From an uncultured Candidatus Saccharibacteria bacterium (GTDB lineage: Bacteria > Patescibacteriota > Minisyncoccia > Phycocordibacterales > UBA9973), in the NCBI GenBank assembly GCA_964596395.1, contig CAZQSY010000003.1, forward strand, positions 25,678-89,677: a stretch of 64,000 nucleotides of DNA, in the 5' to 3' direction. Below the pieces are notes generated by a model, which saw only the letters and a list, made by a program, of their open reading frames with translations, searched no databases and was not told the origin of the DNA. Each line of letters begins with the position of its first letter. Positions within the stretch are counted from its first letter, which is position 1. Of this stretch, positions 2,843 to 53,060 are shown one piece after another. Made by a program: the position numbers and the translations under genes.

Positions 2843-3637
2843 TCAATCAATCTCCACCTGCACGAATTTTATCTCAAAAATATTCACCGGCGAGATGAGC
2901 AGGGCTTTTTGGAAAGCGTCGCGCGGGTCGGAGATTATTTTTTCCACCCTCGCCAAAACGTAAGGGGTAACGCCCGGCAAGACGACTTCAGCCCCTTCAG
3001 CCAGAGCAAAATCCCTCGGCAGAACCATTTCAAAATTTCCCCCGCCCCGGCCGACGACCTGCATAAAAACATCCCGACCCGAGACGACAACTTCCGTCTG
3101 CTCGCCGGGGGTAGAGTAAAGAACCACCTTTGAGGATTTGGCGAAGGTCTCGGCTACTTTTCCTATCGGTATGTTGCCGAAAGCAAAAACATTTTGCCCT
3201 GCTTTGACACCCGCTTCGGCTCCTGCGTCTATTATGAAAGCATCGTACAGCGACTGGTCGGGCCTGCCTAAAATTCCAGCCAACAGCATCTGCACCGTCT
3301 CGTTTTTTCTGCCCAAAATTTCCTTGAGTTTTATGTTTTCATCTAAGACCGTCTGATGTTCGGAAATGCCAGCGGCGGTCTCGTAAAGTTTTTGCTTCAG
3401 GGTCTCGTTTTCAAGTTCTAGGGATTTTTTCGAAGAAAAATAAACACCCAGGGAAGAAATTTTTTCTCCCGCGCCCCTTCCCAAGGCAAGCAACGGGCGA
3501 AAAACCGCGTGCGCCGCGACTGAAAGCCCGCGGCCGACACCGCCGCGGAAATATAAGAGTACTAGAACGAGCAGAACCAGCGCTGAATATTTGAGAATGT
3601 TTTTTTTCTTCGCCTTTTTATCTAGGAGGTAATTCAT
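2843..3637 (-). CDS. mreC: rod shape-determining protein MreC
   Basis: N-terminal TM segment, a coiled-coil stretch (LELENETLKQKLYE...IKLKEIL), then a Gly-rich beta domain. It lies immediately downstream of mreB and overlaps it by 20 nt. Confidence 0.7.
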   Translation of the reverse strand: MNYLLDKKAKKKNILKYSALVLLVLVLLYFRGGVGRGLSVAAHAVFRPLLALGRGAGEKISSLGVYFSSKKSLELENETLKQKLYETAAGISEHQTVLDENIKLKEILGRKNETVQMLLAGILGRPDQSLYDAFIIDAGAEAGVKAGQNVFAFGNIPIGKVAETFAKSSKVVLYSTPGEQTEVVVSGRDVFMQVVGRGGGNFEMVLPRDFALAEGAEVVLPGVTPYVLARVEKIISDPRDAFQKALLISPVNIFEIKFVQVEID

Positions 3638-8004: not shown

Positions 8005-8078
8005 GCCGGTGTAGCTCAGGTGGTTAGAGCGCCACTTTTGTAAAGTGGATGTCGAGGGTTCGAATCCTTCCACCGGCT
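8005..8078 (+). tRNA. tRNA-Thr (anticodon TGT)
   Basis: GCCGGTG/CACCGGC acceptor stem, D-arm GCTC-AGGTGGTTA-GAGC, anticodon stem CCACT/AGTGG with loop TTTGTAA, T-arm GAGGG-TTCGAAT-CCTTC. Total 74 nt, and the 3' CCA is not encoded. Confidence 0.85.
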
Positions 8079-8081
8079 CAG

Positions 8082-8159
8082 TTGGTACCTGCCTGCCGGC
8101 AGGCAGGGAACAACGCTTTCGTAAAGCGAAGGTCCTCGGTTCGAATCCGACGAGCCAAG
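8082..8159 (+). tRNA. aberrant tRNA-like sequence (possible tRNA-Thr, anticodon CGT) with the D-arm replaced by the 20-bp REP-like palindrome
   Basis: Canonical T-arm GGTTCGAATCC at 8138-8148. Anticodon hairpin ACGCT-TTCGTAA-AGCGA with one mismatch. Acceptor stem TTGGTAC/GAGCCAA is 6 of 7 paired including a G-U wobble. The D-arm position is occupied by CCTGCCTGCCGGCAGGCAGG (8088-8107), and ~6 extra nt precede the anticodon stem. This is either a non-canonical tRNA or a tRNA pseudogene disrupted by the repeat. Confidence 0.35.
8088..8107. repeat. REP-1 palindrome copy 1 (CCTGCCTGCCGGCAGGCAGG, perfect 10+10)
   Basis: Perfect 20-bp palindrome. Related copies lie at 19597, 22765 and 50064. Confidence 0.8.
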
Positions 8160-8452
8160 CTCCAGCAAAATCTATAAATAAAATTGAAACGTTCAACACC
8201 TTTCCACCTCCACAATCACCCTCAAAAAGTGATATGAGTAACGCCTACGAAAATGATTACAAAGAAATCGTTCCCATACAGACAGCTAGCGTTCCTATCG
8301 GCAACTATCTGGCGACGGTAGCGGCGGTGGCAGCGGCGATAGTTCTCAGGTTTTTTCTAATCAGAAAAATAGGGCTAAAAAGAAAAAGGCGCTAACTGCG
8401 TCACTACAATATAAAGAGTGAACATCTTTTTATTGCCCGCACACGTGCGAAC

Positions 8453-19596: not shown

Positions 19597-19616
19597 ACCT
19601 GCCTGCCGACAGGCAG
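19597..19616. repeat. REP-1 palindrome copy 2 (CCTGCCTGCCGACAGGCAGG, 1 substitution)
   Basis: Intergenic, about 100 bp upstream of the RAYT-like transposase gene. Confidence 0.75.
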
Positions 19617-19663
19617 GGACCCTTCACGGTACATATTATACCACGACTTCGTTTTCTTTAGTT

Positions 19664-21628: not shown

Positions 21629-23488
21629 TTAAACGACCGTTTTTAATTCTTGTATCTTTTTGTTTATCTCGTTTATTTCCCGCAAAATTTTCTCCGCTCC
21701 TTCTTTCTCTGCCCTTGATTCCATTCCGTGCAGCGCGTTCATTTTGGATGCAAGCGTCTCCCTCAAATGTTCTAAAACAAAATTCCGCGCGAGCTCGTCA
21801 AAATCTTTTCTGATGTCGACATCCCCTCCATAAAAAACCTCCGCTTCAAAAATTAAATCACCTTCGTTCTCCTGCGTACCCGAAAAAATTTCTTCTGCCT
21901 TGCATCCTAGCATATCCGAAATTTTATCAAGCACCTCCTCTACATTTATGGCCGGTTCGGGTAATTTTTTTTGCCACAAAATTATTCCCAAAATCCTTTG
22001 CTTGATATAGTCCTTTCTGGAGGGAAAATTTTTCGTTTCTCCGGTTCCGCTCCTTCCCCCCGTTTCGGCCGAAGAACCTTTTTCTTTTTCCAACCCGGCT
22101 AAATCCTCACGCAAAGCGCTTTCGCTGATTCCCGACAAGTCAGCGATTTTTTTGATGAACACGTCTCTTTCGATACGGCTCGGAAGTTCCAGAACGTACG
22201 GCAATACTTTTTCCCTTATTCCCCGGCCGGCCTTACGCGCATCTTTCCCGCTTTCCTTAAGTACCGCCCGCAAAACGAATTCTATTATGTGACAAGAATC
22301 GCGCACGGCTTTCTTCCAAGCATCCGGCCCTAATTTAGAAATGACGTCTGCCGGGTCCATACCTTCGGGTATAGAGGCAATTTTCACATCCATCCCCAAA
22401 GATAGCGCGATTCTGCCGGCCCGCATAGCGGCACCAAAACCGGCCTTATCCGCATCAAAGGAAAGAATAATATTCTGCGAAAGCCGCCCCAGAAGCCCTA
22501 GTCCCGAAACAGACTTTTCTCGGGAACGTTCTTCTTCCGAGGAAATTTTTGAAATCGTGGATTCCGACAAGGCAGTGCCCGAAGTGGCCACGGTATTTCT
22601 GAAGCCCGCCTGATGTGAAAGCAGCAAGTCCATCTGTCCTTCGACCATAATCGAGAAATTATTTCTGCGTATTGAATCCTTGGCTTTGTCTAAACCGTAC
22701 AAAACCGAGGACTTGTTGAAAATCGGCGTTTCCGGACTGTTCAGATATTTGGCCTGACTTATCACCTGCCTGCCGCCTGCCTGTCCGGTAGACAGGGCAG
22801 GCAGGTCGTCTTTAAAAATCCTGCCCGAAAAAGCTATTACTCGGCCGCTCGAATCGGAAATCGGGAAAACAATTCGCCCGCGAAACCTGTCGTAAAAACC
22901 CGAGCCGTTGTCAGCTTTTTTGATAAGCCCCGCTTGCTCCATTTCTTTCTCAGAAAAACCGAGGGTCTTCAGATGAGAAAAAAGCGCCCGCCATTCTTCC
23001 TGCGCCCAACCCAGTTTGAATTCCTTTATAGTGGAGTCCTTAAGTCCTCTATCTCTCAAGTATTTAAGCGCCTCTTCGTTTTGCCAAAGATTTTTTTCAA
23101 AGAACCCGGCCGATTCCAAAACCGCACGGTATAGTCTATCTTTTTCGCCTTCTTTTTCCTGATTCCATTCACGAAGAGATATGCCGGCACGGTCAGCGAG
23201 CACTTTGAGCGCTCCCCGAAAATCAAGCCCCTCAAACTCTTCCACAAAAGAAAATATATCCCCCTTCGCCCCGCAGCCGAAACAATAGTAGCTCCCGCGG
23301 TCGGGCGACACGAAGAAAGAAGGAGTTTTTTCGCTGTGAAAGGGACACCTTGCTTTTAGGTTCTTGCCCGCTTTTTCCAATTTCAGATATGAAGAAACCA
23401 CTTCTTCTATAGAGAGCCTCTCCTTGATTTGTTCCGCAGGAGAAATCATCGCTTTTTTTGTTTGGCGAAAAAAATTTCCGTCAGCCAC
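21629..23488 (-). CDS. dnaG: DNA primase
   Basis: CHC2 zinc finger '[30 protein letters not shown]'. TOPRIM motifs '[10 protein letters not shown]' and '[11 protein letters not shown]'. '[11 protein letters not shown]' is also present. There is a 16-aa insertion encoded by the REP-like palindrome (see findings). Confidence 0.9.
22765..22805. repeat. REP-1 palindrome copy 3, expanded imperfect variant (CCTGCCTGCCGCCTGCCTGTCCGGTAGACAGGGCAGGCAGG), in-frame inside dnaG
   Basis: Read on the minus strand it encodes [16 protein letters not shown] within DnaG. Confidence 0.75.
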
Positions 23489-42759: not shown

Positions 42760-44898
<2,139 letters not shown>

Positions 44899-48176: not shown

Positions 48177-48383
48177 CTAATTGGGAGACCAGGTTAGTTC
48201 GTAGTCGAAACCTTCCAGATGTTTTAAAGTGTAAACGCCCTTAACGCCATCAACCATAAAAGTACTTGTTTTGTACGTATGTGCCCTGTCAAAAAGATAT
48301 TCGTGCTCTTTTAAATAGCCCAGCCCCTTTTCTGATTTCCCATCATTCTTAACGCTTCTATCGCCTATTTTTTCCCAATCCAT
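48177..48383 (-). CDS. hypothetical small protein (68 aa) immediately upstream of pheS
   Basis: ORF with a 6-nt gap to pheS and no recognisable motif. Confidence 0.3.
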   Translation of the reverse strand: MDWEKIGDRSVKNDGKSEKGLGYLKEHEYLFDRAHTYKTSTFMVDGVKGVYTLKHLEGFDYELTWSPN

Positions 48384-48440
48384 AAATTTTAAAATTATTA
48401 AAACAAATAATGCATTTATTATACAAAAAACGGAAAATTT

Positions 48441-48449
48441 TGCTAGAAT
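48441..48449 (+). promoter_or_regulatory. extended -10 element TGCTAGAAT placed 6 nt upstream of a small ORF (leaderless arrangement)
   Basis: The element is identical to the rpsB promoter -10 (tgctagaat). The ATG at 48456 sits at the predicted transcription start site. Confidence 0.35.
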
Positions 48450-48455
48450 GAGGGA

Positions 48456-48551
48456 ATGGAGAAAAACTACCGGCTTTTGATTCTTCTGGCGATTGTGTTG
48501 CTTTCAATAGGCCTCTATCTCGGCTGGCTCGACAACGGGCCGGGGTTCTAA
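48456..48551 (+). CDS. putative 31-aa hydrophobic micropeptide MEKNYRLLILLAIVLLSIGLYLGWLDNGPGF
   Basis: Below the ORF-track size cutoff. A single TM helix follows a leaderless-type promoter. Speculative. Confidence 0.25.
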   Translation: MEKNYRLLILLAIVLLSIGLYLGWLDNGPGF

Positions 48552-48616
48552 CCTTCGAGATATCATTATTTTGTTATAAACTTTGCGATAGCAAAGATAA
48601 TAACAAGAGAAGGTGG

Positions 48617-49093
48617 TCATTTATATCCTTTTGCCAGCTTAAAGGTCTTCACGCTATCCTTCAGTTTTATCTTTTCCAAATAATCCAGAAACTCTTGCGG
48701 TAGAGGCGAAGGTCCGACCCAGACACTTTTTTGTATCATTGTGTATTTAAATTTTTTCAGGTGCCAACGCAACCATTCCCTCTCAGCTTTCTTAGCTTCA
48801 GGCACATCAAACATAAGCATGAGGTTTTTGGGCGCGTTTTTCTCAAACATAAAATCAAATTGTCGTAAGGAATCAATTTTCCTCCTAATGTAATCTCTGC
48901 CCCTTCTGGTCACACACAAACCTTCGTCACTCTCTCCCACTAATCCATCTTTGACTAGATTTGACATGGTGGCACGCAAAGAATTGGATGGGTACTTCCT
49001 AAATTTTGGCAAACCAAGGAAGTTCACGCGCATTCCCTTATAGTTAAGAGAATCCCTGCTAAGTTCCTTCAAAATATCCAGAATGATTGTCAT
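48617..49093 (-). CDS. PaaX-like winged-helix transcriptional regulator (short)
   Basis: N-terminal wHTH-like 'LRATMSNLVKDGLV'. C-terminal 'LMLMFDVPEAKKAEREWLRWHLKKFKYTMIQKSVWVGPSP' resembles the PaaX C-terminal pattern (W.G.W.lv.ydvPe..r..LR..L...G...L..SVW..P). Confidence 0.4.
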   Translation of the reverse strand: MTIILDILKELSRDSLNYKGMRVNFLGLPKFRKYPSNSLRATMSNLVKDGLVGESDEGLCVTRRGRDYIRRKIDSLRQFDFMFEKNAPKNLMLMFDVPEAKKAEREWLRWHLKKFKYTMIQKSVWVGPSPLPQEFLDYLEKIKLKDSVKTFKLAKGYK

Positions 49094-49191
49094 GTTTTTA
49101 TAGTATATTAAATTGTTAGAAATTCTGCTATAGCAGAAAATATAACAATATAGACGACGTGGTCGAGTGAATGAAAGTTATAAAAAAAGAA

Positions 49192-50010
49192 CTAAGCGAT
49201 AAGTTCTCTGATAATATCGGCTTTGTGCACAACGTCGTTATACCCTATACGCATAGTTTTTATTATATGTTCCCTAGTATTGTCTAAGGTACCCGAAAAT
49301 AACCTTACACCGGGCTTTATAATTAAAATATTTTTATCTTTATAGTTATGTCTCGTCTCCCGAGTATAAGACCACACTTTTTCCCTGACGTATTTTCCCA
49401 AAAACAAGGAAAAAAATCGCAGAAGATTTTTAGAGAAGAAATCATGATGTGAATTATCAAAAGCAATAATTACTTCGGCTCCCTCCTGTTTTGCCTTCTT
49501 GATATTCACATCCAAGGGAGCCTCAATGGCGCCGTCTATATAAAGGTTTCTTTTTATTCTCACTAATTTGTTGTAAACAACGGGAGCGGCGTTTGAGGCC
49601 CGCAATGCTTCAAATATATCTACGTCATCCTTGTTGCTCACGTACTCTATCTTCTTATTATTAACGTTCGTCACGGAAACAAAAAACTTTATTTTTGACT
49701 CTTTAACCGACCGAGTATCAAGGGGGTCCTGTTTCTTGAAAATTTCGTCTATCAGATAATCAATATCCATAATTTCTCCCAACCTCCAGAATGAAACAAA
49801 TTTTTTCGAAGGGAGAAGATTCTGCCAAATATTTTTTATTGAACCGTATTGCCTGGCGACGTAATACGCGAGCGTACCGGTACTGCCGGAACTGCCTACG
49901 ACCATGTACGGGTCGGTGAAATTCAATTTTTCCACGAGCGCTAAAATAGCACCGGTAAAATAGGCGCAGGACATACCTCCTTCCGAACCGATAATGGCAA
50001 CTTTCTTCAT
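49192..50010 (-). CDS. patatin-like phospholipase
   Basis: Oxyanion 'VAIIGSEGGMSCAYFTG' (GxGxxG). Nucleophile elbow 'GSSGS' (GxSxG). Catalytic Asp region 'YIDGAI'. The likely start is MKKVAII at 50010, whose ATG overlaps the helicase TGA stop in an ATGA arrangement. The track start is 50043. Confidence 0.8.
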   Translation of the reverse strand: MKKVAIIGSEGGMSCAYFTGAILALVEKLNFTDPYMVVGSSGSTGTLAYYVARQYGSIKNIWQNLLPSKKFVSFWRLGEIMDIDYLIDEIFKKQDPLDTRSVKESKIKFFVSVTNVNNKKIEYVSNKDDVDIFEALRASNAAPVVYNKLVRIKRNLYIDGAIEAPLDVNIKKAKQEGAEVIIAFDNSHHDFFSKNLLRFFSLFLGKYVREKVWSYTRETRHNYKDKNILIIKPGVRLFSGTLDNTREHIIKTMRIGYNDVVHKADIIRELIA

Positions 50011-53000
50011 GCGGTTTTGTAGATTCTCTTCATCATCTCGCAATATTCACAGGAATTTGTCACCTGTCTGCCGGCAGGCAGGAAAGATTTATAATCGCAA
50101 GGCCTGTCGAGCCATTTGCCCGTCTTGACTAAGGTTTCATAATCTTTTATGTCCTGCAGAAGCAGGTCAAACCGGTCTCGCCCGATGGTGGTGCTGTAAA
50201 CGCTTTCTTTCCCGTCTTTGGCTTCCAAAAATTCCAGACGGGATTCATTCACACTCACTCGGCCTTTCGAGCTACGCTCTAGAAGAAAAGAATACATCGC
50301 GAGCTGGCGCATGTAATCGCTCATGCGGCCTCTCGCCCCGTCTGTAAAGGCGGGGTCTTCATTTATTTTCTCAATATCCGACTTTTTGCGCACACTGCCC
50401 GTCTTGAAATCGGTCACCCGCACATCCCTCTCGCCTAATTTCTCGACCAAATCTATCTTTCCGTAAATACTCAAGCGGGGAAACTCCGCGGCTCGCACGG
50501 ACACGCTTTTCTCGGTTTCCCTGTCGGGGTTTATCTCGGCGAATCTTTCTTTCACCCACCTCGAAATTATTCTAAGCAAACCCTTCTCGCCTTGCGCGAT
50601 TTCCTCCAAATCTTTTCCAGAAGGCGGTTTTCTGAATTTTAGAATCTTTTCCATAGCCGCGTGCACTCTGGACCCGAATTCAAGGGTCTCATTTTTCGGC
50701 TCGGGCAGTTTGAGCAGATTGCGGAAATACCATTTTCTGGGACATTCAAAAAAATTATTCAGGAGCGAGACCGAAACATTCACCTCGGCGTATTCTTTCG
50801 AAACCATCTCTAGAAGTTTAGGGATTGTATCTTGGACGTCGTTTTTCTCGCCAGAGGCGACATAATTTTTCGGGTCGTCCGATAAAATTTTCTCTTCAGT
50901 TTCGCTGAAGGTTAATTTTTCAAAAACACTGTCTGCTTGCCCCGCGTTGGCGGCGGCAAGCTCTGATACGATTTTGGCCAACTCCTGCTCCCGACCCGAA
51001 TAAGAGAACCTGGGGTAAGAAAGTCGGCAAAATCTCTTGGCTCTGGTGATGGCCACGTAGAGTTCTCTCTTGGCCGCCGCTTCGTCTTTTTCTTCCACCT
51101 TCAGGGCAACTGATTCGGGCAATCTGAAATTCCGCCGCCGGCCTTTCATGAGCGAACCTTCGTCTAAGTGGGCAACCCAGACAAAATCAAATTCCAAACC
51201 CTTCGAAGCGTGCAGGGTTATGACTTTTACTCCTTCGTCGCTTTTAAACGAGGCGAGCGGAAAATCCTCTCCGTATTCGCGCAACCTTTCAATGAAAGCG
51301 ATAAATCCCGGGAGAGAATTCTTTTCCTGGCGGTTTTCCTTTTCCGCAAACGAAAGAGCGAGATGCAAGACGCTGCGGACTACTTCTATTCTCTCCAAAA
51401 GTTCCGTGTGGCCCTTGGCGGTCTTCAACAAAACCTCGTCGCCGACTTTTTGCACAAATTCCTGCATATCTAGCGAAGACGAAAAAGAAACCAACCGGAG
51501 CAATTTTTCTCCCCATTCTTTTATCTCCCGGGTTCCGCTCGAACCGAACAAGTCCTCTCTTTGGCCGGCCATATCCTGCAAGCTTACTGTCTTGCCTCTT
51601 TCTTGGTACAGATACGAGTGCGCGGCGAGACGGGGTATCCCCGATACCGGGTCTAAGATGCTTTCGGCGAGCGGTACGGGGTCGTGAATATTCGCGCAAA
51701 TTTTGAAAACTCGAAGCAAAGCAGAAAATTCCGCCGTTGCAAAAAGCGACAGGCCCCGCGCCCCGGCCACTTTTATGCCCAAACCTCCGAGAACCCGCAT
51801 GGCCTCGCGGGCCTGCGTATTCTTCGGCACCAAGATGGCGCAATCGCTTTCTTTCACTTCCTTGCTCAGCAGTTTTTCTTTGAGCTCAATTCCGCAAGCG
51901 ATAACCTCGTCGCGCGGATAGTCGCATTCAAAAAGCTTCAGGTTGTGATTTTCTTTGAGGGTAGCGACCAATTTTTCCTCTGAGAAAGAACTCGACAGAA
52001 GCTTATCGGCGGCAGCGAGTATTTTTTGAGTGGAGCGATAATTCTGGGTCAGAAATATAACTTTTGCTTTGCCGAAAATGTCTTTGAATTCTTCAAAATA
52101 AGAGAACTTCGCCCCGCCGAAAGCGTAGATGAGCTGACGGTCGTCGCCGACGGCAAAAATGTTGGGCTTTTCTACTTTCTGCCAAATCGTTTTCAGCAGA
52201 GCGTTTTGCGCGCCACTCGAATCCTGATGTTCGTCAACCAAAACATACAAATATCTTACCTGTATTTCGGCCCGGGCATTTTCGGATTCTTCTAAAATTT
52301 GGAGCGCGTATTTTATCTGGTCGTCATAATCCAAGAGCCCCTTTTCTTGCTTAAGCTTTTCGTACATATCGTAGAAGGACACGATTTCTTTGGTGCGCTC
52401 CAGACCTTCTATCTTTTCCAAATATTCTTTTTTCATTTTTCCTTTCGTTTCTCCCCGGCTCGAAATGCTCTCGGGGTCGTTTTGTATCGCCTGGATTTCT
52501 TTTTCAATTTCATCCAGAAAATCCCGTGGCGACAATCTTTCGCGCTTCAAAAGCGAGACAAGCGAGCGCAGTTCTTTGAAATGCCTGCCGATGTCGCCCC
52601 TGGGACGGAGGTACTGCCATTCGTTCTGGCGCAAAATCTGGTCGCATAAAGATACGGCCTCGGTATCCTCTAAAATTCGCGGAGCAAAAGGCAGAGAAAG
52701 AACGTGAAAAAATTCATCAATGATTTTCCCGCAAAAACTGTGAAAAGTAAGCACTTCTACCCGCCCGCCTTCTTCGCCTATATACTTCTGTAATCGCTCG
52801 CGCATGGCGCGAACGGCCGAATTGGTGAAAGTAAGACATAAGATAGAATCTGCGCCGACATCCGTTTTTTTTAAAATATTGCCTATGCGCAAGGCCAAAA
52901 TCTGGGTCTTGCCCGTACCTGGCCCGGCCACCACCATGACCGGACCGTCTATCGTGTCTACCGCCTCTTTTTGAGCGGGATTTAATTTGCGATATTCGTC

Positions 53001-53060
53001 GTCAAATAATCCGGGAGCCATCGTGCCCCTATTATACCCCGCCTTTTGTTTCAGCGACAT
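50007..53060 (-). CDS. UvrD/PcrA-like SF1 helicase fused to a C-terminal PD-(D/E)xK (RecB/Cas4/AddB-type) nuclease with 4 Cys (Fe-S cluster-type)
   Basis: Helicase motif I 'VVAGPGTGKTQIL', 'CLTFTNSAVRAMRERL', motif II 'VLVDEHQDSSG', plus later helicase motifs. C-terminal 'CPRKWYF', then 'IYGKIDLVEKL' and 'VTDFKTGS' (DYKTG-like), then 'RPCDYKSFLPAGRQVTNSCEYC'. A REP-1 copy encodes LPAGRQV between the Cys residues. Confidence 0.8.
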   Translation of the reverse strand: MSLKQKAGYNRGTMAPGLFDDEYRKLNPAQKEAVDTIDGPVMVVAGPGTGKTQILALRIGNILKKTDVGADSILCLTFTNSAVRAMRERLQKYIGEEGGRVEVLTFHSFCGKIIDEFFHVLSLPFAPRILEDTEAVSLCDQILRQNEWQYLRPRGDIGRHFKELRSLVSLLKRERLSPRDFLDEIEKEIQAIQNDPESISSRGETKGKMKKEYLEKIEGLERTKEIVSFYDMYEKLKQEKGLLDYDDQIKYALQILEESENARAEIQVRYLYVLVDEHQDSSGAQNALLKTIWQKVEKPNIFAVGDDRQLIYAFGGAKFSYFEEFKDIFGKAKVIFLTQNYRSTQKILAAADKLLSSSFSEEKLVATLKENHNLKLFECDYPRDEVIACGIELKEKLLSKEVKESDCAILVPKNTQAREAMRVLGGLGIKVAGARGLSLFATAEFSALLRVFKICANIHDPVPLAESILDPVSGIPRLAAHSYLYQERGKTVSLQDMAGQREDLFGSSGTREIKEWGEKLLRLVSFSSSLDMQEFVQKVGDEVLLKTAKGHTELLERIEVVRSVLHLALSFAEKENRQEKNSLPGFIAFIERLREYGEDFPLASFKSDEGVKVITLHASKGLEFDFVWVAHLDEGSLMKGRRRNFRLPESVALKVEEKDEAAAKRELYVAITRAKRFCRLSYPRFSYSGREQELAKIVSELAAANAGQADSVFEKLTFSETEEKILSDDPKNYVASGEKNDVQDTIPKLLEMVSKEYAEVNVSVSLLNNFFECPRKWYFRNLLKLPEPKNETLEFGSRVHAAMEKILKFRKPPSGKDLEEIAQGEKGLLRIISRWVKERFAEINPDRETEKSVSVRAAEFPRLSIYGKIDLVEKLGERDVRVTDFKTGSVRKKSDIEKINEDPAFTDGARGRMSDYMRQLAMYSFLLERSSKGRVSVNESRLEFLEAKDGKESVYSTTIGRDRFDLLLQDIKDYETLVKTGKWLDRPCDYKSFLPAGRQVTNSCEYCEMMKRIYKTA
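50064..50083. repeat. REP-1 palindrome copy 4 (CCTGTCTGCCGGCAGGCAGG, 1 substitution), in-frame in the helicase-nuclease C-terminus
   Basis: It encodes LPAGRQ on the minus strand within the Cys-cluster linker. Confidence 0.75.

Follow-up and report, generated by a model that had tools for sequence, protein, structure and literature searches.

Yeast mitochondrial genomes contain mobile GC clusters, short palindromes rich in GC whose mode of spread is not known and which can lie in frame in a coding gene (var1). In bacteria, Rickettsia palindromic elements (RPEs) lie in frame in unrelated protein genes, where they are translated harmlessly, and also occur as intergenic copies (PMC10969869). Repetitive extragenic palindromic (REP) sequences and REPINs, which are mobilised by REP-associated tyrosine transposases (RAYTs), are GC-rich, multicopy palindromes of 20-40 nucleotides (nt) that are mostly intergenic and carry a single terminal tag, GTAG or CGTC (PMC3733652). 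The element considered here is a 20-nt palindrome with the consensus CCTGCCTGCCGGCAGGCAGG, present in a 64,000-nt stretch of contig CAZQSY010000003.1 from an uncultured Candidatus Saccharibacteria bacterium; the whole stretch is referred to as the window, and all coordinates are those of the window. One copy, at 50063-50082, lies near the 3' end of a helicase-nuclease gene, upstream of a patatin gene. This copy is probably (with a probability of about 0.72) a tolerated, selfish or neutral insertion, translated as a decaying loop extension and with no regulatory role.

The host gene (50007..53060, minus strand) encodes an AddA/AdnB/RecB-like helicase-nuclease of 1017 amino acids (aa), designated P0001. 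The protein matches the Pfam families UvrD-helicase, UvrD_C and PDDEXK_1 (PF12705, E 3e-23), and its AlphaFold model, with a mean predicted local distance difference test (pLDDT) score of 78, has AddA (4cej_A), AdnB and RecB as its top Foldseek matches. Its C-terminus reads ...RPCDYKSFLPAGRQVTNSCEYCEMMKRIYKTA*. The repeat copy, CCTGCCTGCCGGCAGACAGG, is on the same strand with one mismatch to the consensus, and its codons CTG CCT GCC GGC AGA CAG are translated as LPAGRQ, residues 994-999, which stand 18 codons before the stop. A first-pass annotation of this DNA had assigned the repeat to the last 25 codons of the gene and to the linker of a cysteine cluster, and both assignments were borne out. 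LPAGRQ separates Cys988 (codon at 50097..50099, minus strand), the second of four conserved cysteines, from the CxxC pair C1004-E-Y-C1007 (50040..50051, minus), which follows in frame 3' of the repeat. The first cysteine is C773 (50742-50744, minus), and all four (C773, C988, C1004 and C1007) are invariant in the 70 orthologues aligned. They bracket the PD-(D/E)XK core in the manner of an ‘iron staple’ and fit a putative iron-sulphur (Fe-S) cluster around the nuclease core. The reading frame continues through the repeat and the flank TGACAAATTCC (50052..50062, minus), read (V)TNS, to the invariant CxxC, and the stop codon lies downstream of the repeat. Excision of the 20 nt at the RNA level was considered and rejected: the helicase mRNA would then give KSFDKFL*, losing CxxC, and the repeat must therefore be translated.

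Relative to the orthologues, the repeat is an insertion. Among 120 homologues with 51-66% identity, 117 have a spacing of x10 or x11 before CxxC (..SYGKNTECEYC..) and no palindrome; P0120 was flagged because an extra Cys confused the regular expression, and is x11 by eye. The spacing is x15 in the window protein and x26 in P0019, encoded by locus L001, which has a longer form of the palindrome at the same site. This spacing comparison, a check proposed with the first-pass annotation, came out in favour of its view of the repeat as the linker. A neighbour-joining tree places P0001 and P0019 as sisters. At the same codon, L001 carries CCTGCCTGCC-cctgtccgtct-(GGCAGGCGGGT)x3 and reads TCTTA, then the insert, then TGGCAAATTCTTGC, of which the right flank TGGCAAA is the ancestral T followed by the Gly-Lys codons. 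With the insert removed, L001 becomes TCT TA/T GGC AAA (the slash marking the junction), that is, the Ser-Tyr-Gly-Lys codons of orthologues L002, L158 and L159; the window counterpart in this DNA alignment is TCT TT/T GAC AAA. Moreover, the VTNS that follows the repeat in the window protein is VANS in P0019. In the AlphaFold model, pLDDT falls below 50 only at residues 994-1001 (LPAGRQVT), the rest of the nuclease domain scoring 85-91, and the modelled region fits a disordered surface loop. The loop of this AddA/AdnB-like nuclease between two putative Fe-S ligands tolerates 10 to 26 residues. Insertions are also seen at a second site in the nuclease domain, between EFLEA and K..FY: L002 (~3368-3386, encoding P0004) has a different small palindrome there, GCCTGCGCAGGC, read PPAQAG, and P0036 has another insertion in its C-terminal region.

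In the simplest history, which is also the probable one, the 20-nt repeat entered the helicase-nuclease gene in an ancestor shared by the window organism and the organism of P0019. The block would have entered the Tyr/Phe codon just 5' of Gly-Lys, in the loop between the second and third Fe-S ligands, and shifted the frame by +2. A deletion of 5 nt (8 nt if the ancestor had x11), about 14 nt downstream, would have restored the frame just before CxxC. The loop would thereby have grown from 10-11 to 15 residues, with LPAGRQ supplied by the repeat and VTNS by ancestral codons read out of frame, and the ancestral flank behind TGACAAATTCC would have been the wobble T of Tyr or Phe followed by GGC AAA (Gly-Lys). 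The hairpin of this copy is already weakened by a transition, and the overlap with the patatin gene arose later, through insertion of a low-GC block, and is unrelated to the repeat. Insertion followed by compensating deletion is the order of events that appears most plausible, and VTNS, as ancestral sequence read out of frame, would then be a small but clear case of frameshift-and-compensation evolution.

Several observations weigh against this account. A 20-nt insertion in an essential gene (e.g. dnaG, discussed below) is expected to be lethal until compensated, and a two-step history would need polyploidy, simultaneous imprecise insertion or translational bypass, all of which are hypothetical. 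MAFFT offers an in-frame alternative, in which GRQ (GGC AGA CAG) is placed over GKQ (GGC AAA CAA) of P0004. As judged from the alignments, this is the less probable arrangement, because the TGGCAAA flank of L001 and the replicate in DnaG are better explained by clean insertion. In addition, the palindrome is over-conserved for a neutral relic between lineages that are ~35% diverged in protein, and exact copies persist in an apparently old DnaG insertion (P0215). These last two points hint at selection, or at gene conversion among copies.

The first-pass annotation had also treated the palindrome as one copy of a repeat family, and further copies in the window agree with this. An ungapped search allowing up to 3 mismatches gave three matches, with 0-2 mismatches, at 8088-8107, 19598-19617 and 50063-50082, and none in 100 dinucleotide-preserving shuffles. 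A gapped search added a 41-nt long form at 22765-22805, giving four copies in 64 kb where 0 are expected. The family consensus is a self-complementary 20-mer composed of the arms CCTGCCTGCC and GGCAGGCAGG. It is matched perfectly at 8088..8107, in the D-loop position of a 5'-truncated tRNA-Thr(CGT)-like remnant, whereas the intergenic copy at 19598..19617, CCTGCCTGCCGACAGGCAGG, has a single change in the loop that leaves the 8-bp stem intact. The gyrB gene (42760..44898, minus strand) contains a degenerate hairpin resembling the long form, GCCCGCCTGCC..GGCGGGCAGGC (44208-44242), which encodes 12 residues and opens a ~40-residue insertion (residues ~220-265) when compared with solved structures of GyrB. 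This hairpin may be a third member of the family that is translated in frame.

The 41-nt long form lies in the DnaG primase gene (21629..23488, minus strand), where, on the minus strand, it encodes 13 residues and a V in frame. It forms an insertion of ~15 residues relative to the solved primases 2au3 and 5guj, and is also inserted relative to the Paceibacteria consensus FSGRIF.DDGKSAKYLNSP. This loop of DnaG is a hot spot, with independent palindrome-derived insertions in many Paceibacteria, among them P0215, P0128, P0217 and P0160. In P0215 (locus L160) the exact 20-mer is present as GA[CCTGCCTGCCGGCAGGCAGG]TG ACA AGT CAG GCA, and one extra nucleotide restores the frame, for a net gain of 21; here ancestral GGA AAG TCT, now in a different frame, is read as ACA AGT CAG, the Ser codon having passed from TCN to AGT with the string AAGTC kept. 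P0128 (L161) has a decayed 21-nt copy three codons upstream and in another frame (PCLPAGR), the unit itself containing the extra nucleotide. The long form of P0217 (L164), at 36 nt, is a multiple of 3 in length, and P0160 (L163) has a decayed homologue of the long form of the window, in which the hairpin is lost. On these alignments, DnaG is an independent replicate of insertion with frameshift compensation. In the helicase and DnaG genes alike, the block lies directly 5' of Gly-Lys codons (GGnAAr), which may reflect microhomology with the GGCAGG arm, or chance. A second insertion of ~18-24 residues relative to solved primases is found at DnaG residues ~313-336 (window ~22480-22552).

Beyond the window, one genome per species was scanned (596 gigabases, Gb) with the pattern CCTGCCTGCC-N(0-30)-GGCAGGCAGG. 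At least 120 loci were found, and 103 among the matches listed are the exact 20-mer; a uniform chance model gives an expectation of ~1 match. Arm-swapped and shuffled control palindromes gave zero matches. By their taxon labels, carriers among the matches listed include many lineages of the Candidate Phyla Radiation (CPR), Saccharibacteria, WWE3, Omnitrophota, Planctomycetota, Thermodesulfovibrio, Chloroflexi, Bdellovibrionales, uncultured Gamma- and Deltaproteobacteria, and Bacteroidota, the last including isolates in culture (Winogradskyella echinorum, Flagellimonas yonaguniensis, Longitalea luteola and Flavivirga). In IMG/VR, 35 stretches contain the exact 20-mer. One viral contig, IMGVR_UViG_3300037242_000417 (L143, L150 and L151; 29.5 kb, with a terminase large subunit), has six exact copies and one near copy, some of them at the centre of longer inverted repeats and with both orientations present. 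BLAST found no exact 20-mer in PLSDB plasmids (7.3 Gb) or GenBank phages (2.3 Gb), which is consistent with its absence from well-studied taxa. Neither the exact 20-mer nor three sub-strings of 14-16 nt had a match in ~8 million full-text papers, and keyword combinations gave no description of the repeat.

The family is mostly intergenic, the median stop-to-stop open reading frame (ORF) across a copy being 85 codons, against 324 for random positions. Where copies outside the phylum of the window do lie in long ORFs, 7 of the 16 cases listed read LPAGRQ, one of them in a 721-codon ORF in L017 that is FtsK-like by eye. The flanks of 143 exact copies show only a weak preference for A at position -1 (41%); since the flanks are not conserved, the unit is exactly 20 nt long, without a GTAG or CGTC tag. 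Most copies (138 of the 143) have no direct repeat of at least 4 bp that could represent a target-site duplication. The other five (L054:773, L099:187, L101:346, L125:1660 and L141:3391) have direct repeats of 7-8 bp, where 0.1 are expected, and none has one of 4-6 bp; that of L101 may be just a heptamer tandem array, and a unit of 20 + 7 = 27 nt would keep the reading frame. When the palindrome is deleted in silico, 12.8% of the junctions fall in the loop of a hairpin (stem of at least 6 bp), compared with 3.7% of nearby control positions (p = 2.6e-4). An all-against-all BLASTP comparison of 2337 ORFs from 120 loci revealed no family common to more than 6 loci that could be a linked mobilising gene, and no larger element bounded by two half-sites was present in the 120 loci. 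Variants of the 20-mer recur across unrelated genomes, and all are C-to-T transitions at GC positions (C5, C9 and C13): they occur at window 50063-82 and 19598-617 and in L007, L044, L075, L105 and L107, with CCTGTCTGCC.. in the window and L007 and CCTGCCTACC.. in four loci. Their recurrence suggests a deamination hot spot or the copying of sub-family variants and, together with exact copies in apparently old insertions such as that of P0215, leaves room for gene conversion or for selection on the sequence.

The 20-mer is also associated with tRNA genes, 12 of 115 copies lying within 150 nt of an intact tRNA gene compared with 2% of random positions. In L003, L007, L034, L043 and L102 the neighbouring tRNA has a partial copy whose D-loop contains the 20-mer, and the 20-mer is enriched in partial tRNA copies adjoining intact genes. 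The partial copies all start at tRNA nucleotide 1, which hints at an RNA-derived or integrase-type origin, and precede the intact gene by 8-260 nt on its upstream side. L019, L104 and L120 likewise have the exact 20-mer in the D-loop of partial tRNA copies, and in L094, L033 and L059 it directly adjoins fragments of tRNAs encoded nearby, whose matches end near tRNA positions 33, 56 and 62. In the window, the remnant at 8079-8165 is a 5'-truncated tRNA-Thr(CGT)-like sequence fused to the end of tRNA-Thr(TGT) (8005-8079), and consists of GCTCAGTTGGTA, the palindrome and GAAC A ACGCT TTCGTAA AGCGA..TTCGAAT..CCA in that order. Neither ARAGORN nor Rfam called this remnant a tRNA, with the palindrome present or deleted, and Rfam found no partial tRNA at 8080-8165. 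Over the whole window, Rfam at its gathering threshold reported only two tRNAs. The idea that the palindrome splits tRNA genes was rejected: deletion of the 20-mer restored no intact spanning tRNA in ARAGORN, except for an odd 86-nt call in L034, and the carriers are therefore truncated tRNA copies and not split genes.

The first-pass annotation had proposed that the palindrome of the helicase gene acts as an mRNA hairpin, tuning either translational coupling to the patatin gene or how stable the helicase mRNA is at its 3' end. The overlap on which this idea was based is real: the helicase stop TGA (50007-50009) and the patatin ATG (50008-50010) form ATGA at 50007..50010 on the minus strand, the downstream gene (49192..50010, minus) encoding a patatin-like phospholipase of 272 aa (PF01734, E 7e-13). 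The position of the repeat in the final 25 codons also speaks for such a role, and GC-rich hairpins can stall ribosomes or block exonucleases. However, the gap to the ATG is 52 nt (50011-50062) and not the 20 nt supposed, and the stem is shorter than the 10 bp proposed. A perfect copy forms at most 8 bp around a 4-nt CCGG loop, as in both intergenic window copies, which reach -15.5 kcal/mol, whereas in the 50063-50082 copy a G-to-A change gives a C.A mismatch and a predicted hairpin of 5 bp and -8.3 kcal/mol, no better than shuffles (z = -0.8). When 126 nt of context are folded, no pairing is predicted between the hairpin and the initiation region of patatin, and no terminator-like site was found overlapping the palindrome; so weak a stem, in a repeat 18 codons before the stop, resembles neither an intrinsic terminator nor a 3' stabilising hairpin. 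Gene order is equally unfavourable. Orthologous loci L158 and L159 have cupin-helicase-pheS-pheT-gyrB without a patatin gene, whereas in the window a three-ORF block (48177-50010; patatin on the minus strand, a 158-aa PaaX_M/Cas2-like protein and a 68-aa ORF) stands between helicase and pheS. GC is 0.39 across 48-50 kb, against 0.44-0.55 elsewhere in the window, and on synteny and base composition the block is a lineage-specific insertion that looks like a recent acquisition. L001 retains the palindrome insert without an overlapping downstream gene, and the repeat is therefore older than the ATGA overlap and independent of it. Since the block is lineage-specific and the P0019 gene has the insert without patatin, a coupling role is unsupported; the DnaG member of the family, moreover, lies in the middle of its gene, where it cannot serve coupling. 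Nothing points to regulation of the patatin gene by the repeat, and the hairpin explanation is accordingly considered very unlikely.

A tolerated insertion has also to be weighed against three other explanations of the palindrome. It could have arisen locally, by a fold-back or template switch that copied the complement of a GGCAAACAAGG-like Gly-Lys-Gln stretch, with convergent likeness to the family. MAFFT does align the right arm GGCAGACAGG with GGCAAACAAGG of P0004, and the helicase and DnaG sites both adjoin GGnAAr codons, but most orthologues have GGnAAnAAYACnGAA, which offers no half-site, and both arms are within 1 nt of a 20-mer found at unrelated loci in the window and across phyla. 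With the L001 flank TGGCAAA also better accounted for by clean insertion, local origin is highly improbable. The chance that the palindrome is an artefact of assembly or sequencing, such as a chimeric or adapter-derived sequence, is close to nil: most carriers are metagenome-assembled genomes, but the repeat is in frame with compensating changes, exists in mutated and expanded variants, and occupies the same site in two independent assemblies. Furthermore, NCBI and Logan both contain the identical window protein sequence, and the 20-mer is carried by cultured isolates and by assemblies from several assemblers and technologies. Somewhat more credible, though still improbable, is a functional site at the DNA level (a protein-binding, uptake or segregation signal), selected wherever it is placed in the manner of parS or the DNA uptake sequence (DUS), which set a precedent for the tolerance of conserved palindromes in coding DNA. 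The recurrence in at least 120 genomic loci of many phyla and in 35 viral stretches, with none for the control palindromes, and the exact copy kept in an apparently old DnaG insertion would both be expected of such a site. Nevertheless, the repeat is a clean insertion relative to orthologues and not a substitution, copies decay (e.g. window 50063-50082 and P0160), no neighbouring gene recurs, copies are mostly intergenic, and no exact copy is present in the plasmid and GenBank phage sets. The helicase copy, as a tolerated insertion, is probably without function.

For the family as a whole, a tentative proposal, possible and not probable, is that CCTGCCTGCCGGCAGGCAGG is an undescribed, pan-bacterial, ultra-small insertion unit that spreads unlike REP/RAYT or miniature inverted-repeat transposable element (MITE) transposition. 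Such a unit would insert as a self-complementary block of exactly 20 bp that lacks a tag, a linked gene and, in most cases, a target duplication, and would range over CPR/Patescibacteria, Bacteroidota, Omnitrophota, Planctomycetota, Nitrospirota, Chloroflexi, proteobacterial metagenome-assembled genomes and phages. Its preferred sites would be the loops of hairpins and, in partial tRNA copies, the D-loop; after compensating frameshifts it would repeatedly remodel loops of replication and repair proteins (DnaG, the helicase-nuclease and possibly GyrB). How it might spread is a matter of speculation. One route would be that of an unusually small inverted-repeat element, and another the healing of DNA breaks by ligation or capture of a self-annealed 20-mer; in a variant of the latter, the same CCTGCCTGCCGG tail would be added to both 3' ends of a break and annealed via the central CCGG. 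The clean 20-bp block, the rare 7-8-bp duplications, the junction deletions and the long forms with unique filler fit either route. An identical 20-nt palindrome found in many phyla and in phages seems, in any case, to enter even essential genes (dnaG) and to become fixed after compensating indels. Should the family prove mobile, few known mobile units would be as small. It could also mark a biology of DNA breaks or hairpin processing in little-studied phyla, some with carriers in culture.

Comparison with described systems brings out both likenesses and differences. The yeast mitochondrial GC cluster family is organellar, with units of 30-40 bp or longer that are AT-flanked and have characteristic target motifs, and has no sequence relation to the 20-mer. 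A treatment of that family is given in PMC4478555. MITEs resemble the 20-mer family in being non-autonomous with inverted-repeat arms, and in the long forms the same 10-nt arms enclose an inner sequence that varies; however, the 20-mer is far below MITE size, 138 of the 143 copies lack a duplication of at least 4 bp, and no parent insertion sequence with 20-mer ends was seen within the 120 loci. With REPs and REPINs the family shares the form of a short, multicopy and mostly intergenic palindrome. Unlike these lineage-specific repeats, it crosses phyla and shows no GTAG or CGTC tag among the 143 exact copies; unlike extragenic REPs, it has copies inside genes (helicase and DnaG); and unlike RAYT-linked REPs, it has no linked gene family nearby among the 120 loci. 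The host protein itself resembles the ‘iron-staple’ nucleases AddB, Cas4 and Dna2, with a PD-(D/E)XK core, one N-terminal and three C-terminal cysteines, and a fold that matches AddA, AdnB and RecB. The cysteine pattern of AddB is C...C-x2-C-x5-C. That of the host is C...C-x10/11-C-x2-C, unlike AddB, for what is a putative cluster. The closest likeness of the repeat is to RPEs, in that it is translated in frame in unrelated genes (helicase-nuclease and DnaG) and has intergenic copies as well. RPEs are ~150 bp long (100-150 bp as a class), of frame-preserving length, occur only in Rickettsia and encode a peptide that is conserved; the 20-mer, unlike them, is not a multiple of 3 and needs a compensating indel (-5/-8, +1, or +1 within the unit), lacks conserved flanks, and extends over many phyla and phages. 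The family is therefore grouped with the in-frame palindromic repeats, with a substantial chance that, taken as a whole, it is something new.

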